Shown here: positions 935 through 20,890 of the stretch, in pieces
How positions within the stretch are numbered: position 1 is the first letter of the stretch
Layout of the letters: each line of letters begins with the position of its first letter
From: a virus
Taxonomy: Duplodnaviria; Heunggongvirae; Uroviricota; Caudoviricetes
IMG/VR virus record: IMGVR_UViG_2721755676_000006
Length of the DNA stretch: 36,332 bases
Direction: 5' to 3' (one strand)
Notes under the pieces: generated by a model
Told to the model about the DNA's origin: nothing
The model's database searches: none
Seen by the model: the letters and a program-made list of their open reading frames with translations, nothing else
Position numbers and translations under genes: made by a program

Positions 935-2620
935 GTGAATATAAACGTCGCCGAATTGTTAAATGGGAATTACATTCTGTTATTATTTGTGGTCCTCGCG
1001 CTTGGGCTATGTCTCGGAAAGTTACGACTTGGTTCGATCCAACTGGGTAATTCCATTGGCGTTTTAGTCGTATCGCTGTTATTAGGCCAACAACATTTCA
1101 GCATTAACACCGATGCGCTTAATCTTGGCTTTATGCTGTTTATTTTCTGCGTCGGGGTCGAAGCCGGACCGAACTTTTTTTCCATTTTTTTTCGCGATGG
1201 GAAAAATTACCTAATGTTAGCACTGGTGATGGTTGGCAGTGCGCTGGTGATCGCCTTAGGGTTAGGTAAGCTGTTTGGCTGGGATATTGGCCTGACGGCC
1301 GGTATGTTAGCAGGCTCTATGACGTCGACACCGGTTCTGGTCGGTGCTGGCGATACACTGCGTCATTCCGGCATGGAAAGCAGGCAGCTCTCACTGGCAC
1401 TGGATAATCTGAGCCTCGGGTATGCCTTAACCTATTTAATCGGTCTGGTGAGTTTGATTGTTGGTGCGCGTTACTTGCCGAAATTGCAGCATCAGGACTT
1501 ACAGACCAGCGCCCAGCAAATCGCCCGCGAACGTGGCCTGGACACTGATGCCAACCGTAAGGTTTATTTACCGGTGATCCGCGCCTATCGCGTCGGCCCG
1601 GAGCTGGTGGCCTGGACCGACGGCAAAAATCTGCGTGAACTGGGTATTTATCGACAAACCGGCTGCTACATTGAACGTATTCGACGTAACGGGATTCTGG
1701 CAAATCCAGACGGTGATGCCGTGCTACAAATGGGCGATGAAATAGCGTTGGTAGGCTATCCCGACGCCCATGCCCGACTCGATCCCAGCTTCCGTAACGG
1801 TAAAGAAGTTTTCGATCGTGACCTTCTCGACATGCGTATCGTCACTGAAGAAGTGGTCGTTAAAAACCATAACGCTGTAGGTAAACGTCTCGCACAACTG
1901 AAGTTGACCGATCACGGTTGCTTCCTTAACCGCGTCATTCGTAGCCAGATTGAGATGCCGATAGATGACAACGTCGTGCTTAACAAAGGTGACGTTTTAC
2001 AAGTCAGCGGTGATGCCCGTCGCGTAAAAACCATCGCCGATCGCATCGGCTTTATCTCGATTCACAGCCAGGTCACTGACCTGCTGGCATTTTGCGCCTT
2101 CTTTGTTATTGGGCTGATGATCGGGATGATCACCTTCCAGTTCAGCACATTCAGTTTCGGCATGGGGAACGCTGCCGGGTTGTTATTCGCCGGAATTATG
2201 CTGGGCTTTATGCGTGCTAACCACCCGACCTTCGGTTACATTCCGCAAGGTGCATTAAGCATGGTGAAAGAGTTCGGCTTGATGGTGTTTATGGCAGGCG
2301 TTGGTCTGAGCGCCGGTAGCGGTATTAATAACGGCCTGGGCGCGATTGGCGGTCAGATGTTGATTGCCGGATTAATTGTCAGTCTTGTGCCCGTGGTTAT
2401 CTGTTTCTTGTTCGGTGCTTATGTATTGCGAATGAACCGCGCACTGTTGTTCGGCGCAATGATGGGCGCACGCACCTGCGCGCCGGCAATGGAGATCATC
2501 AGTGATACAGCTCGCAGTAACATCCCTGCGCTGGGCTACGCGGGCACCTACGCAATCGCCAACGTCCTGCTGACGCTGGCAGGGACAATCATCGTCATGG
2601 TATGGCCAGGATTAGGATAA
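935..2620 (+). CDS. ybjL: putative AAE-family transporter YbjL (two membrane domains flanking TrkA-C-like soluble domains; GTG start)
   Basis: 561-aa ORF with hydrophobic N- and C-terminal halves and a central soluble region; chromosomal context. Confidence 0.85.
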
Positions 2621-2855: not shown

Positions 2856-3074
2856 TCAAAGAGAGAGCGCCACCTGTCCTGATTTCATTGGATGCGGCTG
2901 AACCGGATTTGACTCTTTTGGCGTTGCAATCGAACGAACAAAAGTTTCATGGGTAACAAAAGTATGGCTGCAGTTAATGTTCTGGCACTGGTTGTAACGC
3001 TCTTTGGTCAATGAAGATACCTGAAAACTGCTGCGAGTATGGGCGGCACTTCCACACAGTGGGCAAATCATCAT
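2856..3074 (-). CDS. ogr: Ogr/Delta-family zinc-finger late-gene transcription activator
   Basis: 72-aa product MMICPLCG...C..C with the CxxC-N22-CxxxxC arrangement typical of P2 Ogr; ORF track start (GTG 3107) trimmed to tandem ATGs at 3074/3071. Confidence 0.85.
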   Translation of the reverse strand: MMICPLCGSAAHTRSSFQVSSLTKERYNQCQNINCSHTFVTHETFVRSIATPKESNPVQPHPMKSGQVALSL

Positions 3075-3164
3075 TTTTCGAGTTCTCCCCATTTTTGCTA
3101 AATTCACAATAATGATACCGCATTATTCCATTTTGAAAACTTAAAAGTTCTCCATTGCGAAGAA

Positions 3165-4265
3165 TCATTCCATTTCGAAATCATCAATCCTCACTTCAAG
3201 CTCCAGACTGGTCGTAAAACCGTTATCCGGGCTGACGGTATGCGTCAGAGTCGTAATGGTCCATTCCGCATCATCTATCGGCTGTTTAAAACCACTGACC
3301 TTCACAGGCATTTCCGTGTAGAGATCTGCCCGCCCTTCTGCCAGTTGTAGCGAAAATGACGCAACGCCGCGTTGCAGGCGTTCCCACTGCATTTTCGCCG
3401 CTCGTTCGGCGTTGCTCCGGTTGGCATAAGTGCGATTAAGTACCAGCACGTTTTCATCCGTACCCACCAGGTAATCGCCCTGCTTCGCTTCTGGCTCTTT
3501 CTTCTGCTTCTTAGTTCTGCGCTTACGCTTCACCGTGGTGCTTTCTTTCTTCGCAGGTTCGCGGGTATGCAACCAGCTGGCAATTACGCCCGTGTAGGCT
3601 CCGCGATCTGCCAGGGTAAATCGGTGACTGTCGCCGTCCTTGCGTGTGATAGTGATCACTGGCAGAGGTTTACCAGTGGCGCTTTTGCCCTGCCCCTGCC
3701 GGATGAATAACAGATTGCCATTTTTCACCGACGCGATGGCACCGTACTGTCGCGCCAGCCGCATCAGAAAACTGCCGTCACTCTCATTAGTCTGGTCTAT
3801 ATGCTCCACGGGCTTATCCGACAGGTCTTTACCCAGTGCCATCTTCAGCTTGTGCCGCGCGGCTATTTCCTTCACCACTTCCCCGACGGTGGTCTTATGC
3901 CACGATTTTTCACGGCGGGTATTCAGCGTTTCCCGAAAATCAGCACTTCGCGCCCGGATAGTCAGGCGGTCCGGTGCGCCAGTGTGTTCAATCTCGTCCA
4001 CCGTGAATGTCCCTTTCGGGAAAAGCGGCTGCCCCTTCCAGCCCAGCGCCAGCGTAATGACCGCACCACGGCGCGGCAGCACGATTTTTCCGTCGGCGTC
4101 GTCCAGCTCCAGATCAAGCTGGTCCGCGTCAAAGCCCCGATTGTCCGTCAACGTCAGACTCATCAGACGGTTATCCAGCACAGTAGTGATATCCCTGCCC
4201 TCAATACTGATGCTGAATGCGGGAGTTTTGTTGCCTTTGTTAAGCAGTTCAGAGCTGAAATTCAC
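3165..4265 (-). CDS. D: tail protein D (late control gene D family); GTG start with GGGAGGG RBS
   Basis: 366-aa ORF with P2 gpD-like blocks (RLMSLTLTDNRGF, WKG, FLMRLARQYGA); position between ogr and U. Confidence 0.85.
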   Translation of the reverse strand: MNFSSELLNKGNKTPAFSISIEGRDITTVLDNRLMSLTLTDNRGFDADQLDLELDDADGKIVLPRRGAVITLALGWKGQPLFPKGTFTVDEIEHTGAPDRLTIRARSADFRETLNTRREKSWHKTTVGEVVKEIAARHKLKMALGKDLSDKPVEHIDQTNESDGSFLMRLARQYGAIASVKNGNLLFIRQGQGKSATGKPLPVITITRKDGDSHRFTLADRGAYTGVIASWLHTREPAKKESTTVKRKRRTKKQKKEPEAKQGDYLVGTDENVLVLNRTYANRSNAERAAKMQWERLQRGVASFSLQLAEGRADLYTEMPVKVSGFKQPIDDAEWTITTLTHTVSPDNGFTTSLELEVRIDDFEME

Positions 4266-4747
4266 GACAGCAGCCCTCCCACCGTTTTACTGATATCACT
4301 TAAGGCAGATGTTGCCGTGTCCTGCAGATTATTCAGTTGCGTACTGAGATCACCGAACATATCGGACAGGGATTCATCCACCCGTTTGAGCGACAGGGTG
4401 AACTCAATCCGGCGCGGCATACCATCGCGGAAAAACTCCGTTTTAGTCTGATTCAGTCCCTCAATCACATACATGCCATAAATCGTGCCGCTGCCTTCAA
4501 TCAGGGGCCATGCTTTCCCCTGTTCTGCCATCTGCTCCAGTGCCAGCAACGACAGCCTGCCGCCTGTTATCTCCGGCATAAGAACACCAGAAAGCGTCAG
4601 CATGTCGTTGTCCGGTCCCAGAAACTGCGTGGACGGACGACGATTTACCCGACTGTTTGCCGCATGTCGCCAGCTGCGTTGATACTGCAGCTCCTGATAC
4701 GGTACGGTGCGCAGCATAAACACGTACAATCCCAGCACCATCATCAT
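4262..4747 (-). CDS. U: tail protein U
   Basis: 161-aa ORF starting MMMVLGLYVF..., P2 gpU-like; stop overlaps D start, start overlaps T stop (ATGA). Confidence 0.85.
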   Translation of the reverse strand: MMMVLGLYVFMLRTVPYQELQYQRSWRHAANSRVNRRPSTQFLGPDNDMLTLSGVLMPEITGGRLSLLALEQMAEQGKAWPLIEGSGTIYGMYVIEGLNQTKTEFFRDGMPRRIEFTLSLKRVDESLSDMFGDLSTQLNNLQDTATSALSDISKTVGGLLS

Positions 4748-7700
4748 GCGTCGTATCCCCCCTGATCGCTGTAGTTACTCCTGGCTTTTGCCTTCAGCCT
4801 GCGTTCACGTTCATCAAGCTGGCGTGCCACCTCCCGCGCAATATCCTGCGCACTTTGTCCTGGCTGCGTCTGGATGATGATCTGCGTCGGTGCCTCAATC
4901 CGGTGAACGGGCGGCACAGCAGCTGCGCGACTCACCATCGCTTCACCGCCTTTCGCGGGAAGTGCCAAAGGATGCAACGGTGGAAGCTCTGCTGGCGCGG
5001 CAGCAACGCCCATCATTCCGGCGACAACCGCAGCCAGTGCAGCGGTATTTCTCCGGCTGGTCACGTTTGCCGGACCGTTGACAATTTCCGGCCCGTTTTC
5101 ACCGACAATGCCGAACTGCCCGCGCGGGATATACCCGCCGCTGTCATACATCCCCGCAAAGCCATATCCCCATGACGGAAAACCACCCGATGGCATTATC
5201 ACTTTACCGTCTGCATTCACCGTCGCAAGTTGCTGACGCGTCACGCTTTCCGGCAGTTTCGCTTTTGCAGCCTCTTTACTGACAATGCCGAGTTTCTCCA
5301 GCAACCAGGAAACGCCGGATTTCAGGGAGTCCAGCGGATGCATGACCATATTCAGCCCTTCCGCCAGTGCCTCTCCGAATCGCCGCCCCATTGCCGCTGC
5401 ACTCTGCAGTTCGGCAGAGGTCGACTTAACGGGCGTCAGCAGATCAGTAAACCAGCCCCACAGCGCCTGTACTTTGTCGCCAATCCACTGAAACACAGGC
5501 TTAAGTGGTTCGAATGCTGCACTGATGGGACCTGCCGCCGCTTTGAATCCTTCCACCACACCAGCGAGAAATGCGGTGATGGGTTGCCAGTATTTCCAGA
5601 CAACCAGCGCCACGCCCGCCAGTGCAGTAACCACAAGACCTATCGGACTGAGCAGAGCACCTAACAGACCAGATATGGCATACAGGGCAACGCGCAGCAT
5701 CGCCAGCGGACCGGATGCCAGTACTCGCAGCACCGCGCCTGCGGCAGCCAGTCCACCGCGTAGTGCTGCCAGTGGATTCATAAACATCACAGCAACAGCA
5801 CGTAAACCGGATAATCCAGACCGCAACAGTGCAACCGGCACACCTGCTACAGTTTTCAGGACATTCCCCGTCAGTGATGCCGTGCGGCGCAAAGACGACA
5901 ACGGCGCAGTAAGTAAACCCGCTGCGTTGCCCGATGAAGCAAGCCCGCGTCGCAGCAGTGCCAGTGGAGTGCCAGCTAACCAGGACAACGCGCTGCTGGT
6001 TCGTGTTACTGCTGCCGTAACGGAAGGTAACGTTTTGATACCCAGCACAGAGAATCCCAGACGGATGACTGCCAGCGGCCCCAGCACTGCAGCCAGCGCC
6101 ACCGCTAAGGTGCCGAGGCCTAGGGTAACCGCAGCCACAACAGCCGCTACTTTCATCAGTGTGCCTGTCAGTTCCGGGTTAGCTTCCACCCAGCGGCGCA
6201 ACGCCCCCGTGATGCTTTTCACCGTGTACAGAATATCCATCAGCGGCTGGCGCAGCGTTTCGCCCAGGCTGCTGAAGGTATTCTGTGCAGTGGTTTTGAC
6301 CAGCAACCACTGCGCAGAAAGTGAATCCTTGTTAATGTCGGATTCTTTCTGCATGGAGCCGAGCGCATCATTGCCCGCTGTCAGTTTTAGCTGGCGCTGT
6401 AGTTCCGGCAGGTTGTTTGCCAGTTTCGCCGCGTCATCGCCAAACTCTTTACCAAACAACATAGTCATGGCAGACAGACGCTTGTCCTGCGGCAGTGCGT
6501 TCACCTTCTCCAGCACACGCTGGATAGTTCCCATCGCATCCTTCGTCATCTGCTTTTCAATCACTTCAGGATTGAGTTTCAGCAGATTCATCCCTTCAAA
6601 GAAACTCTTGCTCTGCATGGTGGCAATGGACAATTCACGCACCATCGCGTTTGCTGCACTGGCTGCAACCTCCGGCGCAGCTCCCAGTGTCAGGAAGGTG
6701 GAACCCAGCGCCGCCGCTTTACGATAATCCAGACGGTCAGCCACACCGCCCAGGCGTTGCATCACATCAATGATGTCCGCCCCTTTCGACATGGCGTTAT
6801 CATCCAGATAGTTCAGCGCATCACCGAGCTGTTCAATATTGCGGGTAGGGATTTTGTAGAGCTGAGCGATTTTCCCCAGACTTTCTGACAGTTCATCCGC
6901 TGGCAGCTCAAAGGCTGTTGCCGCCTTTGCTGCTGTGCTGGCGAAGGCCAGCAGGTCACGTTTCTGGTCTTCCCAGCTGTCGTCAGGGTTTGCGACGTTC
7001 ATGCGCGCCCCACCTTCAACCAGTGCGGCGAAGTCCACCGCACCGTTTTCCATCGGCAGCTGTTCGCTGGCAGCCTTGATGGCATCCTGCATTTCATAAA
7101 AACGTGCAGTACGGTTTCCATTATCGTCACGCAGACCATTGACCTGCTTTGCCACACCTTTCATGGCATCTTCCATGCTGGTATAGCTTTTTACTGCCGC
7201 CATCACTGGCGTCCCCATTGCCAGCCCTGCAGCCGTGGTAGTGGCTCCGGCTCCTGCAATACGATCGCGCACCTCCAGCGAACGGGCATAACTGGCACGC
7301 GCCGCATTCATCCTGCGCTGAGCTTCACCCAGTCGCTTCAGCCGCGCCTCCTGTTTCGACAATTCCTGGTTATAACGTGATGTTTCACGGGCTAAACGGG
7401 CAGTTGCTCCCGCATCATCTTTCGCAGAAATTCCCGCCCGGTACAGTTCTGCACGCACAAGCGCCGTTTGCTTCTGCAAATATTTTTGTTGTTCTTCCAG
7501 GCGTTGGACTGCCAGCGTTTGCCGACCTAAAGCCACAAGGTGCCGTTGTGATGGTTGTTCCATCGCCTCCAGCTCAGAGCTAAGCAAATTAGCCTTCTGT
7601 CTGGCATAGTTCAGCCTGTCGCCTAACTTCTTGTTATCGGCCTGCAGCTTGCGAAATTTTTCCAGGCTGTTACCCGCCTGATTGAGTTGCTTTAATGCGT

Positions 7701-7821
7701 CACGGGAGTTTCTGATTGCGCCAGCCAGCTCTTTCGAACTGGCCTGTGCAGCACGGAATGGGCGGGTGAGTTTGTCAACCGCATTAAGAATGACCTGCAG
7801 CCGCAGGTTATTATTACTCAT
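4744..7821 (-). CDS. T: tail tape measure protein
   Basis: 1025-aa Ala/Leu-rich ORF with coiled-coil N-terminus and Gly/Ala-rich hydrophobic middle; position downstream of E/E'. Confidence 0.9.
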   Translation of the reverse strand: MSNNNLRLQVILNAVDKLTRPFRAAQASSKELAGAIRNSRDALKQLNQAGNSLEKFRKLQADNKKLGDRLNYARQKANLLSSELEAMEQPSQRHLVALGRQTLAVQRLEEQQKYLQKQTALVRAELYRAGISAKDDAGATARLARETSRYNQELSKQEARLKRLGEAQRRMNAARASYARSLEVRDRIAGAGATTTAAGLAMGTPVMAAVKSYTSMEDAMKGVAKQVNGLRDDNGNRTARFYEMQDAIKAASEQLPMENGAVDFAALVEGGARMNVANPDDSWEDQKRDLLAFASTAAKAATAFELPADELSESLGKIAQLYKIPTRNIEQLGDALNYLDDNAMSKGADIIDVMQRLGGVADRLDYRKAAALGSTFLTLGAAPEVAASAANAMVRELSIATMQSKSFFEGMNLLKLNPEVIEKQMTKDAMGTIQRVLEKVNALPQDKRLSAMTMLFGKEFGDDAAKLANNLPELQRQLKLTAGNDALGSMQKESDINKDSLSAQWLLVKTTAQNTFSSLGETLRQPLMDILYTVKSITGALRRWVEANPELTGTLMKVAAVVAAVTLGLGTLAVALAAVLGPLAVIRLGFSVLGIKTLPSVTAAVTRTSSALSWLAGTPLALLRRGLASSGNAAGLLTAPLSSLRRTASLTGNVLKTVAGVPVALLRSGLSGLRAVAVMFMNPLAALRGGLAAAGAVLRVLASGPLAMLRVALYAISGLLGALLSPIGLVVTALAGVALVVWKYWQPITAFLAGVVEGFKAAAGPISAAFEPLKPVFQWIGDKVQALWGWFTDLLTPVKSTSAELQSAAAMGRRFGEALAEGLNMVMHPLDSLKSGVSWLLEKLGIVSKEAAKAKLPESVTRQQLATVNADGKVIMPSGGFPSWGYGFAGMYDSGGYIPRGQFGIVGENGPEIVNGPANVTSRRNTAALAAVVAGMMGVAAAPAELPPLHPLALPAKGGEAMVSRAAAVPPVHRIEAPTQIIIQTQPGQSAQDIAREVARQLDERERRLKAKARSNYSDQGGYDA

Positions 7822-8250
7822 CGTTGGCCCCGCTTCTCTGAATCGCTTTATACCGCCATTCCAGCACTTCGGTCAGCGGCATAACGTCAGTAACGGATGG
7901 CGGCCAGTGAAAAATGGTGGCGATATCTGCCACCAGATCGTCAACCGTCAGGCTGTCGGTAAACCGGCAAGCACCGACTTCTTCAACAAAAAAGTGACAA
8001 CCTCAACCGACATGGCAGTGAGATCTGCCGGGTCCATCTCTGCAATTTCCTGTGCAGTCAGTACCGGACTGGAGATGCGGGGGATCACGGTCATCATCGC
8101 GTTCACATCCATATCCATAATGGCCTGCAGGCGTGTACCGCGCAGCGCACCGGACTGCGGTTTACGCAGCACAATTTCGGTAATTTCTGTTTTACCGCGC
8201 TTGATAGGGGTATCCAGTTGAATGGTCTTTTCAGTCTGCTTATCGCTCAT
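7814..8250 (-). CDS. E': tail assembly chaperone E+E' made by programmed -1 ribosomal frameshift
   Basis: Slippery heptamer T_TTT_TTG in the E frame at 7987-7993 (minus strand); the -1 frame is open for 58 codons to TAA at 7814-7816, overlapping the T start codon. Confidence 0.65.
7948..8250 (-). CDS. E: tail assembly chaperone E (zero-frame product)
   Basis: 100-aa ORF directly upstream of T, equivalent to P2 gpE / lambda G. Confidence 0.8.
   Translation of the reverse strand: MSDKQTEKTIQLDTPIKRGKTEITEIVLRKPQSGALRGTRLQAIMDMDVNAMMTVIPRISSPVLTAQEIAEMDPADLTAMSVEVVTFLLKKSVLAGLPTA
7987..7993 (-). other. programmed -1 frameshift slippery site TTTTTTG
   Basis: Read directly: minus-strand codons ACT TTT TTG in the E frame; downstream -1 frame has no stop until 7814. 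Confidence 0.6.
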
Positions 8251-8304
8251 TTTGTTGTCCTGTAAATTGGGTTCTGGCGCGGTATCCCGCGCCGTTCAGA
8301 TAGA

Positions 8305-8820
8305 TCAGAGGCCGAGGGCGTTGCGGTGCGCTTCCATCAGGTCTACACCGTCCACAATCTCCACCATGTTGATAAGGTCCACTTCATAGAGCACCTCACC
8401 ATTGATGGTCAGCTTCGCGTAGCTGTTGGTACTGGTCACTTTGGTGGTGTTGCTTTCGCCCGTCTTCCACTCGCCGGAATCCACTTCTTTGTGACGTCCA
8501 CGCACCACAAGCTCCACAGCCTGCACTTCCCCGGTATCGTCACGCTGGATAGAGCCGGTAAAGCGCAGCTGGATGCCATCCACCGTGGCTTTGCCCATCT
8601 GCTTAAACAGCAGCAGTTCAGTACCACCAATGGAAAATTCTGTATCCAGTGCACTGTCATCCAGTCCCAGATCCACATCCACCGCCCCCGGCATTCCGCC
8701 ACCGCGATACTTCTCATATTTGCGGGTGAATTTCGGCAGCGTCAGCGACTCAACGATCCCCTGCCAGTTGTTCCCGTCGTTAAACAGGTTCAGGTGTTTT
8801 AATTTGCGTGGTAAAGCCAT
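8305..8820 (-). CDS. FII: major tail tube protein
   Basis: 171-aa ORF, P2 FII-like, immediately downstream of the sheath gene. Confidence 0.88.
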   Translation of the reverse strand: MALPRKLKHLNLFNDGNNWQGIVESLTLPKFTRKYEKYRGGGMPGAVDVDLGLDDSALDTEFSIGGTELLLFKQMGKATVDGIQLRFTGSIQRDDTGEVQAVELVVRGRHKEVDSGEWKTGESNTTKVTSTNSYAKLTINGEVLYEVDLINMVEIVDGVDLMEAHRNALGL

Positions 8821-8829
8821 GTTGTCCCC

Positions 8830-10002
8830 TTACGCGCTGACCTGGCTGGCAAAATTCACCAGGTACTGATCGGTGATGCGCTGGCGCAGCATCAGATTTT
8901 CAAGTGGCGGCACTGGCGTGTAGTCATAGTCGATGGTGAGTTTTCCGGCTTTCAGCGTGTCTTTGTCGTTCACCGACTCATCCAGCCAGCAATCACCACC
9001 AATGAGATAGCCTTGACTGACCAGGCTGCGCATTTTGGCGCGGATACCTTCGATAATGTCGCGGGCCAGCGACGGGTTAAGCGGTTTATCCACCGCCCAC
9101 ATGTGTGCTTCTGCCATCGTGTCCATCAGCACCTGCGCCGTGCGGGTGTAGTTTTCGAAGGCAAAGAGCGGGTCATCACTCAGGCAGCGGGAACCCCAGA
9201 AGCGGAAACCGTCTTTACGCACAAGTGTGGTGACGTCGTTCTGGTTCAGCAGACCTGCATCGGTTGCCGGGTCCTGCAGATCCCAGAACACATCTGCAGA
9301 AATTCCGGTGACACCGTTCACGCCCACGTTGGACAGGCTTTTGTGCCATCCGGTCTGCTCGTCAATTTTGGCGCGCAGACCAAGCGCACGGGCGGTGGCA
9401 TATGCCGTTGCTTCGGCATTCAGCACCGTGTCCCAGCCAGTAAAGTCAGGCCAGATCAGCATCCCTTCGCGCTGGCTGAAGTTTTCACGGTAAGTGATCG
9501 CCTCCTGTACCGTCTTGCAGCCATACGCTGACAGGTAAGCAAATCCACGCAGGCTTTGCGCCACGCTCAGCAACTCAGTAGCTACCGCCTTGGTGTCGTG
9601 GCCTGGCACGCCGAGAATGCGCGGTTTAACGCCGAGCTGAGCCTGTGCAGATAACAGGGCTTTCATACCTGTTTTTTTACCTTCAGCAGTCACTGCGCCG
9701 ATGATATTGGTCGTGGTTTCGTCTTCCGTTTCACCCTGCGGCACACGCACAACAACGGTCACGGGTTTTGCCTGGTCAGCGATGGCATCCAGCGAACGAG
9801 CCAGCGTGCCTGACTCACCCGCTTTACCGCTGGCAGTCAGCACATCAGTGATCAGCACGGGTTTATTAAGAGGAAACATTTTTGCATCGGCATCATCGCC
9901 CGTGCAGACCATACCCACGATGGCGGTGCTCACCGTGGTAATGGATCGGGTGCCTTCGTTGACTTCAACAACGCGCACCCCGTGGTGGTAATCCTGAGCC
10001 AT
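8830..10002 (-). CDS. FI: contractile tail sheath protein
   Basis: 390-aa ORF, P2 FI-like; ATG at 10002 preceded by AGGAGG. Confidence 0.9.
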
Positions 10003-10077
10003 AGTGGCGAACCTCCTGATTGGATTAGGCTTCGCCCTATGTTGAAGTGATTGTGCCTGACAAACAGCTAAGCGCAG

Positions 10078-10097
10078 TTGTACCGTTATTCACACAA
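10078..10097. promoter_or_regulatory. candidate Ogr-dependent late promoter element (TTGT-N12-ACAA dyad) for the FI-FII-E-T-U-D operon
   Basis: TTGTACCGTTATTCACACAA read directly, about 80 bp upstream of the FI start; the same dyad recurs upstream of V and O. Confidence 0.4.
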
Positions 10098-10144
10098 AAT
10101 GACGGTATTTGTCTGCTTGCAGGGATAATCAAAATTATGCTGAT

Positions 10145-10711
10145 TCAGGGGGATTCATTGCTCTTATTTGCCGGAAATTTTCTATAAATGGTAGAAACGC
10201 CTACATCAAAAATCAGTGCAATACGCTGTCTTGATTCTCCGGCCTCGAGTAAACGTCCAATCTGTGCCCACTGTTCAGTGGTCAACTTAGGACGGCGTCC
10301 ACCTACTCTGCCTTTGGCACGAGCTGCAGCCAGCCCTGCCCTGGTACGTTCAACTATCAGTTCGCGTTCCATTTCAGCCAGGGCCCCCATGACATGAAAA
10401 AAGAAACGGCCCATTGGGGTGCTGGTATCAATACTGTCAGTCAGGCTTCGGAAATTCACGCCACGCTGACGCAACTCTTCTATCAGCGTAACAAGATGCC
10501 GCATACTGCGCCCCAACCTGTCTAGCTTCCAGACAACCAGCGTGTCTCCTGCCGATAGTGTCCTGAGCAGTTTTTTCAGCCCCGGTCTGTCGGACTTAGT
10601 GCCACTGATTTTATCCTCAAAAATCCGCTCACATCCCGCGCAGTTCAGTGCATTACGTTGCAAATCGGTGTTCTGGTCATTTGTTGACACGCGTACATAG
10701 CCAATAAGCAT
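10145..10711 (-). CDS. serine DNA invertase (Hin/Gin/Pin/Cin family)
   Basis: 188-aa ORF with N-terminal resolvase catalytic motif (YVRVSTNDQ), C-terminal HTH (GVSTIYRKF); adjacent to the tail-fibre genes. Confidence 0.9.
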   Translation of the reverse strand: MLIGYVRVSTNDQNTDLQRNALNCAGCERIFEDKISGTKSDRPGLKKLLRTLSAGDTLVVWKLDRLGRSMRHLVTLIEELRQRGVNFRSLTDSIDTSTPMGRFFFHVMGALAEMERELIVERTRAGLAAARAKGRVGGRRPKLTTEQWAQIGRLLEAGESRQRIALIFDVGVSTIYRKFPANKSNESP

Positions 10712-10766
10712 GATTATCCCCCTGACTAAAAACCGGGGATGATGCCAGTTAGCTGTTACCTCTGCA

Positions 10767-10792
10767 TTTTCTTAAACGTTGGTTTGGGAGAA
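10767..10792. repeat. invertase crossover site B (26 bp, two 12-bp half-sites around a 2-bp core)
   Basis: TTTTCTTAAACG-TT-GGTTTGGGAGAA; the 14 bp 10779-10792 are an exact inverted copy of 12363-12376. Confidence 0.7.
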
Positions 10793-11122
10793 GCCAGATA
10801 TATCATTCAGCGAGGAGCTAATGCCAATGGTGCATGGATTCGCTGGTCAGATGGTGCAATAGAAGTCTTTGGAACGGGTGGGTCTAATGATAATGGACTG
10901 GCTAAAGTCGTTTACCCAATTGCACTGCCTAAACTTTCACGTTTTATCAGTATCGCGGAAAGAATAAGAACAGATTACGAGAGCACACCTAATAATGTTC
11001 ACGTTTCAATGATCGTGGATGATCAGGTAACAAATACCGGTTTTTATGCCCGCTGCCAGATGTACGACGGCAGACCATCATCAAATGCTTTTTCCTGGAG
11101 GGTTTATTGTGCGCCTGTTTAA
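10781..11122 (+). CDS. alternative tail-fibre C-terminal exon (no own start; fused in-frame to the H N-terminus after inversion)
   Basis: Reading frame runs in-frame through site B (..VGLGEARYI..) for about 109 codons to TAA at 11120-11122; the H frame across site A reads ..TYLGLGEG.. Confidence 0.6.
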   Translation, partial: GLGEARYIIQRGANANGAWIRWSDGAIEVFGTGGSNDNGLAKVVYPIALPKLSRFISIAERIRTDYESTPNNVHVSMIVDDQVTNTGFYARCQMYDGRPSSNAFSWRVYCAPV

Positions 11123-11306
11123 TCCAGTTACTTTGACTGAAGTAATCCCCGGTCTTCATGATGTGACCGGGGCTATTGAATTACCGGAGGACAACTGGTT
11201 TTTTACTATGACAGAAATTCCTCAGGGCATGGAGCTAACAATTAATGAGAAAGGGGAACCAATATTGATTGAGGTTAATCAGTCTCAGGGAAAGCAGGCC
11301 AAATAA
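11109..11306 (+). CDS. short alternative tail-fibre assembly protein candidate (tfa', about 65 aa, GTG start)
   Basis: GTG at 11109 preceded by GGAGG; overlaps the end of the alternative exon by 14 nt and the 3' end of minus-strand tfa by 32 nt; unusually short. Confidence 0.35.
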   Translation: MRLFNPVTLTEVIPGLHDVTGAIELPEDNWFFTMTEIPQGMELTINEKGEPILIEVNQSQGKQAK

Positions 11307-11880
11307 TATCAGGCGCGGTGCTGGTATCTGTTGCCGTCACCGCGTCAATGTAATCCAGCACGGCGTTAAGCCGGGTTGTTTCTGCCTGCATCAGCTTCCG
11401 TCCGGCCTGTAATTTCAGCTGAATCAGACTGATGGAAGCCATTGCAGCATCAATCAGTGACTGACGCTGTGCTTCTGCCGTGTCTACTGCGGCGCTATGC
11501 TGTGCCTCAGTATCGGTCACCCATTTCTCACCATCCCATTTATCGTATGGTGTTAACGGGGCGATAGTTGTGGTATTTTCAGGGTAATCACCCGGAGCTG
11601 TGATTTCTTTTGACTCTCCCGTTTTGGTGCTATAGACGATTTCACCGCGATGGTCTGGCACATATTCCCATGAGTTAAAATTTGCAGAACGACAGATAGC
11701 ATAACCCACCTTATATGTGCCAGGGGCATCTAAACAGGAATATGCAGGAATACCGACACCAATGGCAAGATATTCAGTTGAAGCTGAAATATATTCCTGC
11801 GTCTCACTATCATAGTTATAAACGGTAATATCCCCCGACTTTGTAGCAATAAGCTCACTATTTAATATTGCTTTATCCAT
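11275..11880 (-). CDS. G: tail-fibre assembly protein (Tfa, P2 gpG / lambda Tfa family)
   Basis: 201-aa ORF ending ..DTSTAPDIIWPAFPETD, the conserved Tfa C-terminal signature; start overlaps H stop (TAATG). Confidence 0.85.
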   Translation of the reverse strand: MDKAILNSELIATKSGDITVYNYDSETQEYISASTEYLAIGVGIPAYSCLDAPGTYKVGYAICRSANFNSWEYVPDHRGEIVYSTKTGESKEITAPGDYPENTTTIAPLTPYDKWDGEKWVTDTEAQHSAAVDTAEAQRQSLIDAAMASISLIQLKLQAGRKLMQAETTRLNAVLDYIDAVTATDTSTAPDIIWPAFPETD

Positions 11881-13424
11881 TATGCTGCTCTCACGATATA
11901 GTTAAATGCAATGTTTCGAGGGCGATTCTCTGATGCTGTTGGTACAACCCTGGATGCATCAAAACTGAATCCTGTGTAAGGGGTATTTTTTGTTTCATAT
12001 GTGCCTAGGTTATTATAGATATTTCGCGTAGCTTGAGATGCTAAGGCAAAAGCACCAGTACCAGTCTGTAACCTGAAAGTTGCTGAATCAATGGTGCCTT
12101 TAACTTCATTTATAAAGCCTGTTATATTCCGAATGGTATCTCCCTGTGACGAAAGCAAGCTACGGTTAGTATCAATCCCTCTTCCATCATCCCAGCCACG
12201 AATAAACTCACCGCGTAAATCAGGCAATTTATTTGTCGGGTAAACCTTTGCCAGTTCCGGGTATTCTTCAGCAGAAAAAGCCGCCCCGTTGCATTTCAGC
12301 CAGCCTGTTGGCGGAGTGGCGGAAGGCCACGGAACAGGCACGCCAACGGGTAATGCCGAACCTTCTCCCAAACCAAGGTATGTGAGAAGACCAGCTACAT
12401 CCTTTCCACTCAAATTAGTCAGCGTATTGTCCAGCGGTTGTTTACCTGCCAGCGCATTAAGCATTGTCGTGGCAAAGTTCGGATCATTCCCCAGTGCCGC
12501 CGCCAGTTCGTTCAGTGTATCCAGTGCCGCAGGTGCAGAACCCACCATTCCTGCAATCGCCGATTTCACAAAAGCCGTAGTGGCAATCTGTGTATTATTG
12601 ACCGACTGCGCCGCCGTAGGGGCTGTTGGCGTTCCGGTGAGTGCCGGACTCGACAGCGGCGCTTTCAGTGCCAGCGCATTGTTAATGGTGGTACTGAATT
12701 TCGGATCATTGTTAATGGCTACGGCTATTTCTTTCAGCGTGTCCAGCGTGGCTGGCGCACCATTAATAAGAGCCGTCAGTGCCGCCTGAACAAATGCGGT
12801 GGTCGCAAGCTGCGTGGTATTATTCCCCGCCGCTGGCGTTGGCGCTTTGGGGGTTCCGGTAAACGTTGGACTTTCTTTGGGTGCATACTGTGAATGCGGG
12901 TCCGGCGCGGCAAGATGTTTTGCCATCAGGTCATCCACGTACACCTTCAGCTCCAGTGCCTTGTCATCCACATACTTGCGGGTTGCCAGCACTACAGCAG
13001 GGTCGATTTTCAGGGTGATATTGTCCGTGCTGCTGGTAATCAGCACCATGCGCACGGTCTGGGTACGCCCGCTGCCTTCAGCCAGTTGCGGCTTATAGCT
13101 TTCCGGGCAGTTGCCCACGGCAATCAATGCCCCGGACTCATCAAACAGGCCCACTTCACGTATCCACCAACCGCCCTCGTTTTCAGGGATCACCTGTTCG
13201 GCAATAATCTGGCTGCTGTTCTGCGGGTCGATATAGAGCATATTCAGCGCAGCCCGGCGTTTCTCATTTACCAATGCTGTCTGCTTTGCGTCCGGCGTTG
13301 GCAATGTTCCGCCGCCATCGCCGACCGCCATATGGGTAATTTTTAAAGGCACACCGAGCGCGGCGGCGCTGGCAAGTTTCGCCGCGCCAATATCCGTCAG
13401 CAGGGTATAAAATTTTGTGCTCAT
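11880..13424 (-). CDS. H: tail fibre protein (current orientation)
   Basis: 514-aa ORF with conserved N-terminal attachment region and variable C-terminus; crossover site A lies at about codon 350. Confidence 0.9.
   Translation of the reverse strand: MSTKFYTLLTDIGAAKLASAAALGVPLKITHMAVGDGGGTLPTPDAKQTALVNEKRRAALNMLYIDPQNSSQIIAEQVIPENEGGWWIREVGLFDESGALIAVGNCPESYKPQLAEGSGRTQTVRMVLITSSTDNITLKIDPAVVLATRKYVDDKALELKVYVDDLMAKHLAAPDPHSQYAPKESPTFTGTPKAPTPAAGNNTTQLATTAFVQAALTALINGAPATLDTLKEIAVAINNDPKFSTTINNALALKAPLSSPALTGTPTAPTAAQSVNNTQIATTAFVKSAIAGMVGSAPAALDTLNELAAALGNDPNFATTMLNALAGKQPLDNTLTNLSGKDVAGLLTYLGLGEGSALPVGVPVPWPSATPPTGWLKCNGAAFSAEEYPELAKVYPTNKLPDLRGEFIRGWDDGRGIDTNRSLLSSQGDTIRNITGFINEVKGTIDSATFRLQTGTGAFALASQATRNIYNNLGTYETKNTPYTGFSFDASRVVPTASENRPRNIAFNYIVRAA
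12363..12388. repeat. invertase crossover site A inside gene H
   Basis: TTCTCCCAAACC-AA-GGTATGTGAGAA, an imperfect palindrome; first 14 bp identical to the reverse complement of site B. Confidence 0.7.
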
Positions 13425-14026
13425 GGATTCACTCTCATTGTGTCAATAACATGGACCGCCCCGCCTTCATGCGCGGTGCCACCGGAAATAATTGTTTCGT
13501 TGATATACGGATAGATCGTGATTTCTTCGCCAAGATAGCTGGCGGCTCCCACCCAATGCGGGCCGCTGGTCTGCAGATTGATGGACATGCCGATCATGTG
13601 ACGGCTACATGGTTTGGCATCGCTTATCAGTCGCTCAAGTTCCAGATAGGTATCTTCAGTGATGCCCTGGTCCTGCACGCCGATATCCAGGCGAAACGTG
13701 CCCGGTGCCTCTCCGGTCTGCCACCACTCAATAATGCGGATCAGAAAGCCGAACGGCTCCACCACCCGCCGCACGGCACTGGTGGTCCCTTTATGCTGAT
13801 GAATATAAAAAGCATCCTTCACCACCTGGCGCTTGACGCTTTCTGTCCAGCCCTCGTCCCAGCGATCCACAGAGAACGCCCAGGCGAGATAAGGCAGGAA
13901 ACTGACCGGACAGGTTGCCGGATTCCACAAGTCACGAAGCGGCACCTGCAGATCAGAAATCCCGCTGCAGGTTTGCGCCAGTCGGCGCTCCAGTGGTGTT
14001 GAACCCGGTGGCAGCAGACTATTCAT
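13421..14026 (-). CDS. I: baseplate protein I
   Basis: 201-aa ORF starting MNSLLPPGSTPLERRL, P2 gpI-like; stop overlaps H start. Confidence 0.85.
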   Translation of the reverse strand: MNSLLPPGSTPLERRLAQTCSGISDLQVPLRDLWNPATCPVSFLPYLAWAFSVDRWDEGWTESVKRQVVKDAFYIHQHKGTTSAVRRVVEPFGFLIRIIEWWQTGEAPGTFRLDIGVQDQGITEDTYLELERLISDAKPCSRHMIGMSINLQTSGPHWVGAASYLGEEITIYPYINETIISGGTAHEGGAVHVIDTMRVNP

Positions 14027-14927
14027 CCGTTCCTCCGTTGGTTACGCTCCACTGCGTACATGATGCCGCCTGTGTTTTGTTCAGGACCACATCCGCCAGA
14101 GGAGAAGCCAGCTCCACACGCTGCACACCCTCAACATGCAGGGCGGCAAAGATGGCGCTACGGCGAATATCCCGACCAAGACGCGTCTGACTGGCGATGT
14201 ACTTCTGCAGGCTGGCTTTTGCCGCTGCCATTACCGGCTCTGCTTCCGGTCCCGGATAGAGAAAAATGGTGGCTTCCACGCGATACGGGATGATTTCTGC
14301 GCTGCGAACCGTAAGACGGTCAGCCACCGGGCGAACGTTCTCACTGTTCAGAGCTTTTTCCACCACGTCCAGCAGGTCTTTTTCTGCAGTTCCATCGCCT
14401 TCGCGGCTAAGGACAGTCAGTACCACCTCTGCAGGTGCCGGGCTGGTTGCACTGGCATCCGCCACCCGACCGTCGGCACTTCGGGCATGAAATTCATAAG
14501 CTGCAGTTGGCCCCGCAACTGAAAGCCCTTCAAAGGCTGCAGGCACACGCAGGCGTAACGCTTCATCGCTTTCCATCACAGCTGCAACGGGCGGCACAGC
14601 GTCATTATCAGCAGGCGTCACCGTCAGGCGTTTCACGTTGTAGTTGGCAGCGAGCTGGTCAAGATCGCTGCCCATCGCGTAAGCCACCATCACAGCCTGC
14701 GCGGCTTCGTTAATGCGCTGGCGCAGAAGCAACTCACGGTAAGCGTTCTCCTGCAGCAATTTGGTGACGGGTTCAGATTCCAGTTCCAGCGTGCGGATCA
14801 CTGCTTCCTGCTCATCTTTCGGATGAAGCGCAACAAATTCGGCCTTGCGTTCGGCAAGCAGCGTCTCAAAGTCCGGCACATCCACAATCTGCGGCGCAGG
14901 CAACTGCGAAAGGTCAATCACTGCCAT
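14019..14927 (-). CDS. J: baseplate assembly protein J
   Basis: 302 aa from ATG at 14927 (MAVIDLSQLPAP..), P2 gpJ-like; ORF track start 14966 trimmed. Confidence 0.85.
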   Translation of the reverse strand: MAVIDLSQLPAPQIVDVPDFETLLAERKAEFVALHPKDEQEAVIRTLELESEPVTKLLQENAYRELLLRQRINEAAQAVMVAYAMGSDLDQLAANYNVKRLTVTPADNDAVPPVAAVMESDEALRLRVPAAFEGLSVAGPTAAYEFHARSADGRVADASATSPAPAEVVLTVLSREGDGTAEKDLLDVVEKALNSENVRPVADRLTVRSAEIIPYRVEATIFLYPGPEAEPVMAAAKASLQKYIASQTRLGRDIRRSAIFAALHVEGVQRVELASPLADVVLNKTQAASCTQWSVTNGGTDE

Positions 14928-15273
14928 TCTCTGCTCCTGTTGATACGGAAAGGGAAACAGGCACACCGTTATTACGCCGCCCGCTCAGCTCCACCACCAT
15001 TGAACCGTCAAAATGGCTGTTGATGGTGATGGAATCCAGCGTCAGCCGTGGCTCCCAGCGACTCAGCGCCACATACACTGCCGACATGACCTGCAGGCGT
15101 AACGCCGGATTTTGTGGCTGGTCTATCAGTGCCGACAGCAGGGAACCATATTCACGGCGAGCAATGCGGCTACCCTGCGGCGTCAGCAGAATGTCCCGCA
15201 CCGACTGGCGCAGATGGTCAATATCAGCAATGGCTTTGCCGCTGGTATTGTTCATCCCGCTATAAAGCGTCAT
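14914..15273 (-). CDS. W: baseplate wedge protein W (gp25-like)
   Basis: 119-aa ORF, P2 gpW-like (..GSRIARREYGSLL..). Confidence 0.85.
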   Translation of the reverse strand: MTLYSGMNNTSGKAIADIDHLRQSVRDILLTPQGSRIARREYGSLLSALIDQPQNPALRLQVMSAVYVALSRWEPRLTLDSITINSHFDGSMVVELSGRRNNGVPVSLSVSTGAENGSD

Positions 15274-15848
15274 ACCGGGCCTCCGGTTGTGTCGCCGCCT
15301 TTCAGAACGCCAGTATGCTGATGCGCATCAACCACGATCCCGTTAGAACTCATCGCTCCGCCGCCCTGGGTAACGCCACCATTGATCACCACTTCGCTGT
15401 TAATACGCGTGCGGTCAGCCTCCAGTACAAACTCACTGGTTTTCATGGTGATGTTGTCAGCGGCCTCAATGACCATTGATTTGATGCCCCTGACATACCA
15501 GCGCCCGGTGGCGGGTTCGTATTCAAACCAGCCACCGTCAGGATGTTCTGTCACGCAGGCGTCCGCCGACGTCGACGGTGGTGCGAACTGATTCGAATAG
15601 ACAGCGGGCAGCGCAAAGGCGGTTTCCAGATTGCCGCCCAGACTCAGCAGCACCACCTGCTCACCTTCCGATGGTCGCCACCATGTGCGGGCATTCCCGG
15701 CACGCAGCGTCAGCCAGCTAATCCAGTTGGTTTCAAGCTCGCCCGTTTTCACCCGGCAAAGCCAGTTTTCCCTGTCCACTTCGGTGACTACCCCTGTGCG
15801 AATCAGGTTGGTGATAAGGCGCATGATTTCGGTTAATTGTGCGTTCAT
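15270..15848 (-). CDS. V: baseplate spike/hub protein V
   Basis: 192-aa ORF, P2 gpV-like; first gene of the V-W-J-I-H-G operon. Confidence 0.85.
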   Translation of the reverse strand: MNAQLTEIMRLITNLIRTGVVTEVDRENWLCRVKTGELETNWISWLTLRAGNARTWWRPSEGEQVVLLSLGGNLETAFALPAVYSNQFAPPSTSADACVTEHPDGGWFEYEPATGRWYVRGIKSMVIEAADNITMKTSEFVLEADRTRINSEVVINGGVTQGGGAMSSNGIVVDAHQHTGVLKGGDTTGGPV

Positions 15849-15893
15849 AGGGAAAGGTTGCCATCAGGGGAAGAAAGGCGGCAGTGCTGCAAC

Positions 15894-15913
15894 TTGTATC
15901 AGTGCTGATACAA
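15894..15913. promoter_or_regulatory. candidate Ogr-dependent late promoter dyad upstream of V
   Basis: Perfect palindrome TTGTATCAGTGCTGATACAA in the S-V intergenic gap. Confidence 0.4.
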
Positions 15914-15916
15914 AGA

Positions 15917-16363
15917 TCACCCTGCCAGCCATTGCAGAATCATGTCGCGGGTCATTGCCTCAACATCATCATTTACACCCAGCAGGCGGCGCTCTGCGTA
16001 ACGGACCTCCAGTCCTTTGCGACTGACGCGATCACGCAGGCCGTAATGGTGAACACGGGCAATACGCTGCACCTTACCTTCAAACTGTACGCTGGCAGAG
16101 TCGGCGCTGGCGGCAGTTTTCAGGTATTTTGTGGTGCGCAGCTTTGCAAACATCTGACGTTTGATGCGCCCCTTCTTGCTGCGTGCTGTTACCCTGCGCG
16201 GTTCATAACTACTGCCATCTGGATTGCGCTGCATCCTGATATTCTGCTGCTGTGTCCGGCGCAGTTCCTGCGCCAGCTGGCGCATCATGCGGCTTCTCGT
16301 GGCTGGTTCCAGATTCGCCAGCAAGGCACTCAGCCAGTCGTCCACCTTCTGCAGTTCAGCCAC
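15917..16363 (-). CDS. S: tail completion protein S
   Basis: 148-aa ORF, P2 gpS position and size; GTG start. Confidence 0.75.
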   Translation of the reverse strand: MAELQKVDDWLSALLANLEPATRSRMMRQLAQELRRTQQQNIRMQRNPDGSSYEPRRVTARSKKGRIKRQMFAKLRTTKYLKTAASADSASVQFEGKVQRIARVHHYGLRDRVSRKGLEVRYAERRLLGVNDDVEAMTRDMILQWLAG

Positions 16364-16787
16364 GTTTCACCGTCCACATTTCTTCAGGTGCATCAGGTTC
16401 CGCTATACCTTCAACGCTCGACACACTGCCGTCAGTGCTGACCAGCACACGCTCCGTCAGTTGCAGGTTCAGGCTGATATCACAGACATCGTTGCGCAGA
16501 ATATCCACCTCAAAGGTGAATAGCTTTTCCCGTAACGCCGGGTTATTGATGGCATCGGGCTGGTTATCCCTCAGCCACAGCAAAACCGGGGCCATCAGCA
16601 GATTCTGGTCGCCGCTGAAATCCTCAATCACCACGTTGAGGGTGTAACGGTACTCCCATGACATGGAGCTGGCCCCCGTGGCAACCAGCGAACCGTTATC
16701 CACAAACAGATGCAGTTTGTCCGGGTTATTGCGGACATAAGGCACCGCTTTATTGAGAGCGTGGCGCAGGGATTGTGGTTTGTTCAC
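16356..16787 (-). CDS. R: tail completion protein R
   Basis: GTG at 16787 with AGGAG RBS; ..NKPQSLRHALNKAV.. matches the P2 gpR N-terminus; ORF track start 16808 is TTG. Confidence 0.75.
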   Translation of the reverse strand: MNKPQSLRHALNKAVPYVRNNPDKLHLFVDNGSLVATGASSMSWEYRYTLNVVIEDFSGDQNLLMAPVLLWLRDNQPDAINNPALREKLFTFEVDILRNDVCDISLNLQLTERVLVSTDGSVSSVEGIAEPDAPEEMWTVKRG

Positions 16788-17040
16788 TGTTTCGCTCCTG
16801 ACACGCAATAATCATGTCCACTTTGTCTGCACAGACCGCCCAGGCGGCCTCCGTTTCATCCAGCAACGCATTCAGATCACCGTTAGTGCGCGGCGCTGCC
16901 TGCTCCAGCCGACACGGCGTCACTCGCGGACAACCACTGACGGTAAGCTGCACCTCCGGTGAGTGCCGGACGTTCCCGCAGCCGGATAATGTCAGCAGGC
17001 AAAGGAGTATCAGCCCAGCGACGTAAATCCTCGTTCTCAC
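16750..17040 (-). CDS. lysC: o-spanin lipoprotein LysC, overlapping lysB in another frame
   Basis: 96-aa ORF with signal peptide and lipobox LTLSGC; overlaps the lysB 3' end and R 5' end as in P2. Confidence 0.6.
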   Translation of the reverse strand: MRTRIYVAGLILLCLLTLSGCGNVRHSPEVQLTVSGCPRVTPCRLEQAAPRTNGDLNALLDETEAAWAVCADKVDMIIACQERNSEQTTIPAPRSQ

Positions 17041-17311
17041 GTTTCAGTTCCTCAATCCGGCGTTGTCGTTGTCTCAGCAGTACACTGGTCTGTTCTGCTT
17101 CGGCATAGAGCCGCGCCTGCTCCCGGTTATTGGTTTCAGTCAGAATGGACAGGCTGATAAGCTGGCTGTTGCTCTTTGCCAGTGCCTGGCTTTTGCTCTG
17201 TAGCTCGTCTGCCTGCGTGCTGATGGTCTGGCTGGCATCAGCCAGCCGCCACGTCTGCCAGCCCAGCGCCGCCAGTAATAACGCCAGCACAACCAGCAGC
17301 AACCGGTTCAT
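16883..17311 (-). CDS. lysB: i-spanin LysB
   Basis: 142-aa ORF with N-terminal TM helix and coiled-coil periplasmic region; ATGA overlap with lysA. Confidence 0.7.
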   Translation of the reverse strand: MNRLLLVVLALLLAALGWQTWRLADASQTISTQADELQSKSQALAKSNSQLISLSILTETNNREQARLYAEAEQTSVLLRQRQRRIEELKRENEDLRRWADTPLPADIIRLRERPALTGGAAYRQWLSASDAVSAGAGSAAH

Positions 17312-17685
17312 GCTGCTACCTGTTGCGCCATCTGATTACGGGTGATCCAGAAAGCAATAACGGTCAGCAGATAAAAGACCAGGGTAATAGCCCACCCCGT
17401 CCAGGCGAGACTGACGACAATCAGCAATCGCATCACCCAGCTGATAAATACGTTTTCTTTTCGGGTAATTGTCTTCAGCAAAGATGCCCTCAACTCCTGC
17501 CAGAGCGGGCCATTCTTAATTAACGCAGCCAGTGCTACCGGAATTACCGCCCATGTCAGCAAACAGGCTATCCAAACGCCGGACGCTGCCAGTACCGGAA
17601 AAATCCCCTGCGGATACACCATTGCTTCGATTAACAGCGCCATCCATAACATCAGAAACAGCCCGCTGATTAATTTCTTTTTCAT
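17308..17685 (-). CDS. lysA: lysis regulatory membrane protein LysA
   Basis: 125 aa from ATG at 17685 (MKKKLISG..), multi-pass hydrophobic; ORF track start trimmed. Confidence 0.6.
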   Translation of the reverse strand: MKKKLISGLFLMLWMALLIEAMVYPQGIFPVLAASGVWIACLLTWAVIPVALAALIKNGPLWQELRASLLKTITRKENVFISWVMRLLIVVSLAWTGWAITLVFYLLTVIAFWITRNQMAQQVAA

Positions 17686-17686
17686 T

Positions 17687-18199: not shown

Positions 18200-18395
18200 A
18201 GTCCTCCCGCGAGATCTGCCCGTCGCGCAGAAGCTGGTAGGCTTTGTGTTTGTAGTACCAGTTGATAGCCAGCATCAGCACACCAATCATCAGGCCGCCC
18301 AGCGTTGAGGCATCCTTGATGGACAAATCGCCCAGCCAGGCCAGCACAACGGCGATGCAGTACGTGATAAAGGCGCTGATTCGCTCAAGCGTCAT
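18180..18395 (-). CDS. holin (two-TM, pinholin-like)
   Basis: 71-aa ORF with two hydrophobic helices and charged C-terminus; sits between X and the endolysin. Confidence 0.6.
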   Translation of the reverse strand: MTLERISAFITYCIAVVLAWLGDLSIKDASTLGGLMIGVLMLAINWYYKHKAYQLLRDGQISREDYESINR

Positions 18396-18398
18396 AAT

Positions 18399-19066: not shown

Positions 19067-19161
19067 GCTGCTTTCTCCTGAAATAGAGGGCGGTGGACGG
19101 GGTTTTGATGTGGCAGTGCCTTTCGCCACCCCGTGCCGCCCGTGCGCGGGGGCACGTTCTG

Positions 19162-19812: not shown

Positions 19813-19815
19813 GGA

Positions 19816-20874: not shown

Positions 20875-20890
20875 CAGGTTTTGTGCTCCA

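Follow-up and report, generated by a model that had tools for sequence, protein, structure and literature searches.

The question raised by this locus is whether three inverted repeats of the form TTGT-N12-ACAA are the sites from which the late operons of a P2-like prophage are switched on, and whether the rightward P-Q operon is served by one of them. The stretch of DNA analysed here (the window, 36,332 bp) is a P2-like prophage of the Peduoviridae, placed near the genus Wadgaonvirus. In a megablast search it matches P2-like phages of Klebsiella and Escherichia (Kp4849-2, 500465-1, KP12, and Cartapus) with approximately 96% identity over 15 kb. The closest annotated relative is Escherichia phage 500465-1, classed as Peduoviridae, Wadgaonvirus, and the database record of 500465-1 has no annotated regulatory features. 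The proteins of the window are 45-69% identical with their P2 counterparts, and the lysogeny module is 186-like, with an immunity repressor of the 186 CI type (CI repressor Pfam families). The late genes and operons were assigned from the open reading frame map and Pfam, and the ogr homologue from Pfam and an alignment with P2 Ogr, as follows.

2856-3074, minus strand, ogr homologue, a 72-aa C4 zinc-finger protein and the presumed ligand of the dyads
3165-4265, minus strand, D
8830-10002, minus strand, tail sheath FI
11275-11880, minus strand, tail-fibre assembly gene G
15270-15848, minus strand, baseplate protein V
15917-16363, minus strand, S
20891-21724, minus strand, scaffold protein O
21867-23633, plus strand, terminase large subunit P
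23630-24661, plus strand, portal Q
3165-10002, minus strand, F-type late operon (FI-FII-E-T-U-D)
11275-15848, minus strand, V-type late operon (V-W-J-I-H-G)
15917-21724, minus strand, O-type late operon (O-N-M-L-X-lysis-R-S)
21867-24661, plus strand, P-Q operon

Pfam agrees with the identities that an earlier note on this DNA had given to FI, V, O, P, S, and Q, and the Ogr homolog that it had reported is indeed encoded. The product of 2856-3074 matches PF04606 (Ogr_Delta) with E = 5e-22 and 78 bits, against a cutoff of 26.3, and it is 51% identical with P2 Ogr over 72 aa (E = 2e-28). Its cysteines at positions 4, 7, 30, and 35 form the motif CX2CX22CX4C.

The earlier note had also located three TTGT-N12-ACAA dyads; all three are exact matches, and no other exact match was found in the whole 36,332-bp window. 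Scores are those of the position weight matrix (PWM) that is described below.

10078-10097, unstranded, putative pF activator dyad of the leftward FI-to-D operon, TTGTACCGTTATTCACACAA, 24.3 bits
15894-15913, unstranded, putative pV activator dyad of the leftward V-to-G operon, TTGTATCAGTGCTGATACAA, 22.7 bits
21802-21821, unstranded, putative shared pO/pP activator dyad of the leftward O-to-S operon and the rightward P-Q operon, TTGTACCGACAACCACACAA, 22.9 bits

Taken in the direction of transcription, the sequence of the pF dyad is TTGTGTGAATAACGGTACAA. The dyads had been described as near-identical, which is a fair description of FI and O (16 of 20 nucleotides shared in the direction of transcription) but not of V, which shares mainly the arms with the other two (11-13 of 20). 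The V dyad forms a perfect palindrome, each arm being 9 bp long.

Sites of this architecture are known from P2 and its relatives. The P2 late promoters PP, PO, PV, and PF share the consensus TGT-N12-ACA (PMC3931495). The binding sites of Ogr are conserved inverted repeats that have their centres near -55 of the late promoters, and activation by Ogr needs RNA polymerase's alpha subunit (PMC3152322). Both of these sources cite Christie & Calendar 1985 for the P2 late promoters and their Ogr sites. The sequence records of P2 and 186 annotate the following activator sites.

P2 (AF063097), 3057-3087, activator site labelled "pO, pP promoters", with the P start at 3016 (minus strand) and the O start at 3127 (plus strand)
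P2 (AF063097), 10239-10266, pV site, with the V operon start at 10308, the first base of the V coding sequence
P2 (AF063097), 17555-17583, pF site, with starts at 17626-17628
186 (U32222), 3798-3817, 20-bp B-protein site labelled "activation of pV and p12 promoters"
186 (U32222), 14091-14110, 20-bp pJ site, with an annotated initiation point

The window resembles P2 in that the four late operons are in the same order, that ogr follows gene D, that a dyad of the TGT-N12-ACA type lies approximately 55 bp upstream of each start (predicted in the window), and that a single site stands between the divergent pO and pP. It also differs from P2. All three dyads of the window are perfect TTGT-N12-ACAA elements, whereas the P2 sites are imperfect, being TGT-N12-CCA at pF (17561-17578) and at pO/pP (3063-3080) and TGT-N11-ACA at pV (10243-10259), where the window has N12. 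The genus is also different, P2 belonging to Peduovirus and the window lying near Wadgaonvirus. As for 186, its sites are likewise 20 bp long, one of them is shared by pV and p12, and its lysogeny module resembles that of the window; in contrast, the right arms at pJ and p12/pV are CCA rather than the ACA of the window, and the activator is named B. The perfect dyads in the lineage of the window and the imperfect ones in P2 and 186 may reflect a difference in activator specificity.

The dyads thus agree with the earlier claim that they fit the architecture of Ogr/Delta-family sites, both in the TGT-N12-ACA consensus and in the P2- and 186-like spacing. We consider it highly probable that they serve four Ogr-dependent late promoters of this P2-like prophage as upstream activator sites. 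By this explanation, the 72-aa Ogr of the prophage itself would bind each TTGT-N12-ACAA dyad, the centre of which would lie about 55 bp upstream of the transcription start, and on the P2 analogy it would make contact with the host RNA polymerase's alpha subunit. This contact would activate promoters with a weak -10 that lack a -35. The pF dyad at 10078-10097 would drive the operon from the tail sheath gene to D, the pV dyad at 15894-15913 would drive the baseplate and tail-fibre operon, and the dyad at 21802-21821 would act in both directions, from pO leftward into the capsid and lysis genes and from pP rightward into the terminase and portal genes. Of the elements that characterize such promoters, the window has the type of dyad, a candidate weak -10 without -35, a position at the heads of four operons, and an encoded C4 zinc-finger activator; promoters of this class are further characterized by binding of the activator to the dyad and by transcription that requires both the activator and the C-terminal domain of the polymerase alpha subunit. 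It is very likely that the sites are members of the well-described kind of Ogr late promoters, and the finding is real but ordinary.

The spacing between the dyads and the genes is close to that of P2. From the dyad centre to the start codon, the distances are 85.5 bp for FI (82.5 bp in P2), 55.5 bp for V (56.5 bp in P2), and 87.5 bp for O (95.5 bp in P2), so that the three agree within 1-8 bp; the centre of the dyad between O and P is 55.5 bp from the P ATG. The mapped starts in P2 and 186 are at +55.5 to +58.5 from the dyad centres, and the initiation point of 186 pJ is 57.5 bp from the TTGT-anchored dyad centre, or 58.5 bp if measured from the middle of the 20-bp site as annotated. With this spacing, the following -10 elements are predicted.

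10039-10044, minus strand, predicted pF -10 CAACAT, from the spacing of the mapped P2 and 186 starts and a conserved block in the F set
15855-15860, minus strand, predicted pV -10 CAACCT, with spacing nearly as in P2
21762-21768, minus strand, predicted pO -10 region CAACCAT, by analogy with the P2 pO start at centre +55.5
21855-21860, plus strand, predicted pP -10 TAGGTT, a hexamer ending 6 nt before the ATG

All four promoters have a -10-like hexamer at the same offset from the dyad (n = 34-39), and CAAC occupies n = 34-37 in pO as it does in pF and pV. The pP -10 of P2, TAGCCT, has the same offset from its dyad as TAGGTT in the window, and relatives have TATGTT or TAGACT at this place. Position 2 is A in each of the four candidates (CAACAT, CAACCT, CAACCA, and TAGGTT), and position 6 is T in all but CAACCA, where it is A and where the overlapping AACCAT ends in T. 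A scan of the three intergenic gaps with the sigma-70 consensus found no promoter, which is expected for activator-dependent promoters without a -35.

The analogy with P2 and 186 leads to predicted start sites as well. The pF start would be at approximately 10029-10032; the leader would then be some 27-30 nt long and carry AGGAGG as its Shine-Dalgarno sequence (duplex of -11.5 kcal/mol upstream of FI). The pO start would be at approximately 21753-21756, which would leave some 30 nt of leader, with GGAG as the Shine-Dalgarno sequence. The predicted pV start, 15848, is the A of the V start codon, which would make the mRNA leaderless; in P2, the V start codon is likewise at the start site. For pP, the predicted start falls on the first base of the P start codon (A, 21867).

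We further examined 240 loci with relatives of O, V, and FI, taken from viral contigs. The exact TGT-N12-ACA was found upstream of V in 32 of 33 unique regions (centre to ATG 54.5-57.5 bp, mostly 55.5 bp), upstream of FI in 69 of 70 (78.5-85.5 bp), and upstream of O in 48 of 49 (85.5-88.5 bp). The relatives do not count as independent samples, and those of the O set are too alike in sequence to inform. The sole exception in each of the three sets is P2 itself, and a protein scan with P2 gpO for other cases of the P2-type arrangement returned solely sequences 100% identical to P2. The 12 inner nucleotides of the dyad vary widely among the relatives (e.g., TTGTACCATCGATACCACAA, TTGTGCCTGCAATCATACAA, and TTGTGTAGTTAATGTCACAA), and in the FI set the sequences and neighbours upstream of the dyad are unrelated between lineages, yet the dyad is kept. 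In the anchored information profiles, TTGT and ACA carry about 2 bits and the flanks 0-0.6 bits, the invariance of TGT and ACA being partly by construction since the alignment anchor demanded both triplets. Independent of the anchor are the presence of a match at the expected place in almost all loci and the bases at two positions outside the search requirement: position 1 is T in 60 of 60 sites, and A is enriched at position 20 (43 of 60). A second conserved block (AACATAGG or cAACnT) follows the dyad at a fixed spacing, at the place expected of the -10; in the F set, it is the AACATAGG block that is strongly conserved at this spacing.

It had been stated that no dyad clearly serves the P-Q operon. 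This statement does not stand, as the O dyad at 21802-21821 fits shared use, and the records of P2 and 186 each annotate one site common to the divergent promoters. The distance from this dyad to the P ATG is an invariant 55.5 bp in 69 relative loci (those in which the P start is correctly identified, 5 mis-assigned loci being left out), whereas the O-side distance ranges between 85.5 and 88.5 bp. The competing possibility is that P-Q has an activator site of its own, at 21861-21878, or an activator-independent promoter, and that 21802-21821 serves pO alone. There is in fact a TGT-N12-ACA match at 21861-21878, 58 bp from the main dyad, and the shared use of the O dyad is itself a prediction. 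However, this match overlaps the P start codon and thus lies downstream of any possible P promoter, its PWM score (11.9 bits) is at the level of random sequences, and it is lost in many relatives by a change of ACA to CCA; for its overlap with the P ATG, its random-level score, and its poor conservation, we rejected it as a separate pP site. Moreover, the O-P gap contains no other site above the random PWM level and no sigma-70 consensus promoter. A separate means of expressing P-Q is accordingly improbable.

The preferred reading, in which the O dyad is shared, has a consequence for translation that is a point against it. The geometry of the shared site puts the pP start on the P ATG, so that the P mRNA is required to be leaderless, unlike in P2 and 186, where the leader of the P homologue is 23 nt (approximately 23 nt for orf12 of 186) with a GAGG Shine-Dalgarno sequence; the leader in SEN1 is also 23 nt. 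The P start codon of the window is the homologous one; the N-terminal ends of the proteins agree to within one residue, and there is no in-frame start further upstream. The same distance of 55.5 bp from dyad to P ATG is found in Fels-2 and in a Klebsiella Dagavirus, and Aeromonas phage LPM4 has an N13 dyad at 56.0 bp from the P ATG. Despite their diverged sequences, Fels-2, this Dagavirus, and LPM4 all have a TAnnnT hexamer 6 nt before the P ATG, as the 69 close relatives do. No Shine-Dalgarno sequence was found upstream of V, where the duplex energy is -1.8 kcal/mol in the window and averages -1.4 kcal/mol in 30 relatives, against -11.5 kcal/mol for FI. The value for P, -6.1 kcal/mol, comes from motifs that are badly placed relative to the ATG. 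A tentative prediction is that V and P are both translated from leaderless mRNAs in the lineage of the window. A leaderless terminase mRNA, as predicted here, would be a small variation on the P2 model.

We then considered whether the dyads might work as RNA hairpins, that is, as terminators or attenuators between the operons, a case that is strongest for the V dyad. This dyad lies 3 nt past the S stop codon, and its 9-bp palindromic arms together with an outer GC stem fold at -26.1 kcal/mol (z = -3.6), followed by UUUCUU. P2, for its part, has orf30 and an annotated terminator between S and pV, just after S, whereas S abuts the dyad in the window. The FI and O dyads are self-complementary in their 4-bp arms alone. 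Complementarity at the six inner dyad pairs was found in 27-43% of the 60 unique sites, which is near random; this speaks against selection for an RNA stem and in favour of a DNA-binding site. Where the sequence upstream of V is a different one, the relatives keep the dyad 55.5 bp from the V ATG, but their folds are weak (-6 to -13 kcal/mol). A terminator scan found nothing spanning the V or F dyad; it did give a weak site of 5 pairs, 21796-21809, whose span overlaps one of the O-dyad arms. A hairpin or terminator role was rejected for the dyad family, which shows no conserved GC-rich stem followed by a U run, and we regard such a role as very improbable, slightly less probable than a separate P-Q site.

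A compound hairpin was observed at 15878-15930 on the minus strand, spanning the S stop codon, with the pV dyad as its inner stem. This hairpin is present solely in those relatives where S directly abuts pV, and it may be a terminator of the O operon that overlaps the activator site. Where another gene stands upstream of V, the relatives have the dyad and lack the hairpin, so that any terminator role would be secondary and lineage-specific.

Taken as one, the proposals that a single dyad is bidirectional, that V and P are leaderless, and that the V dyad doubles as the inner stem of an O-operon terminator form a tentative reading, which we hold slightly less probable than its opposite. The lineage to which it would apply comprises Wadgaonvirus, Felsduovirus, Dagavirus, and possibly an Aeromonas peduovirus. 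If it is true, the leaderless V and P would be a fixed translational difference built into the late programme.

Could the dyads simply be chance palindromes? Their number by itself is weak evidence and is not significant: three TTGT-N12-ACAA elements compare with 0.78 expected, and at least three were obtained in 8 of 100 dinucleotide shuffles. The shorter TGT-N12-ACA occurs 9 times against 10.6 expected, which is the chance level, and most of its occurrences are intragenic. When the spacer is relaxed to N10-N14, there are 6 matches against 4.0 expected, and the three extra ones are all intragenic. The earlier note had taken an equal frequency of dyads in non-promoter sequence as evidence against a promoter role; such an equality is true of the bare TGT-N12-ACA but not of the extended element.

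The placement of the dyads is a different matter. There are exactly three intergenic gaps at the heads of late operons (352 bp in all, about 1% of the window), with one dyad apiece: the gap between FI and the invertase gene (10003-10144, 142 bp), that between S and V (15849-15916, 68 bp), and that between O and P (21725-21866, 142 bp). Within these 352 bp, roughly 0.008 random TTGT-N12-ACAA elements would be expected. Similarly, a PWM trained on 57 distinct sites of relatives, from which 20-mers identical to those of the window were left out, gave 22.7-24.3 bits for the three dyads and 11.9 bits for the fourth-best match, so that the dyads score approximately 11 bits over any other position of the window. 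The best match in 200 random sequences averaged 11.1 bits, and one of the 200 reached 22.7 bits; across the window, no fourth strong site was found above the random level. It is the placement and the conservation of the dyads, not their count, that exceed chance. With all three dyads lying just upstream of late operons and their position kept in about 150 unique upstream regions of relatives in which the inner bases and flanks vary, an origin as functionless chance palindromes is effectively refuted and has a negligible probability. It follows that the minimal consensus TGT-N12-ACA is a poor discriminator alone, and that it is the extended arms and the position that discriminate.

Ogr-dependent promoters have also been proposed in phages of more distant hosts. 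In Smp131, the TGT-N12-ACA sites of PP' and PO' are given at the same coordinates, 4381-4398, and are thus one shared site (PMC3931495). Ralstonia phages phiRSY1 and phiRSA1 have putative Ogr sites of the form TGTTGT-N13-ACAACA, and the putative Ogr sites of other P2-like phages lie at -50 to -90 from the start codons. As in the window, the dyads of Smp131, phiRSY1, and phiRSA1 are upstream of four late operons and were identified from sequence; they differ in their distant hosts and in their arm sequences or spacer lengths.

The sites also bear on satellite phages. Delta activates the late promoters of the helper, and a P4-like satellite could thus use the sites of the window in trans; the promoters of P4 carry additional Delta sites. 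The likeness to P4, with its Psid and PLL promoters, is that Delta is of the same protein family as the Ogr of the window, whereas the window contains neither a satellite nor a Delta gene. P4 Delta is cited as a member of the Ogr/Delta family beside the TGT-N12-ACA late promoters of the helper (PMC3931495, citing Julien & Calendar 1995). The value of the present sites is mainly one of annotation. They mark four predicted late promoters in a common prophage family of Klebsiella, Escherichia, and Salmonella, the database records of which are without regulatory features, and they show where late expression could be taken over by a P4-like satellite.

Several other features of the window were observed. 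At its left end, 935-2620 (plus strand) is a probable host gene encoding an Asp-Al_Ex/TrkA_C permease, which places the prophage boundary near 2650-2850, just past ogr. No tRNA gene was found in a search of the window. At the other end, the stop codon of the integrase gene (35124-36332, plus strand) coincides with the end of the window, and the 186 CI-type repressor gene is at 34294-34884, plus strand. A gene for a D12-class N6-adenine DNA methyltransferase (31247-32191, minus strand) is directly downstream of a gpA-type replication gene (28830-31250). Between the portal and the replication region, 24685-28155 contains five open reading frames without a Pfam family, one of which (27014-27595, plus strand) matches the PADLOC models ShosT and PsyrT weakly (E of about 1e-8). 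Anti-phage cargo is common at this position, the portal-replication interval, in P2-like phages, and 24685-28155 may be such a cargo locus.

The pF dyad adjoins a gene for a Hin/Gin-type DNA invertase (10145-10711, minus strand; Pfam Resolvase and HTH_7). A 27-nt inverted repeat (10767-10793 and 12362-12388, 81% complementary) containing CTCCCAAACC flanks a segment of approximately 1.6 kb, and we take this repeat to resemble the gix/cix crossover sites. The segment contains the tail-fibre assembly gene and the 3′ end of the tail-fibre gene H, and it also contains opposite-strand open reading frames at 10739-11122 and 11046-11306. This organization suggests a host-range switch that works by inversion, of the kind known from the Mu G segment. 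Phage 500465-1 has, in its record, a "DNA invertase" together with two genes for tail-fibre assembly, one on each strand.
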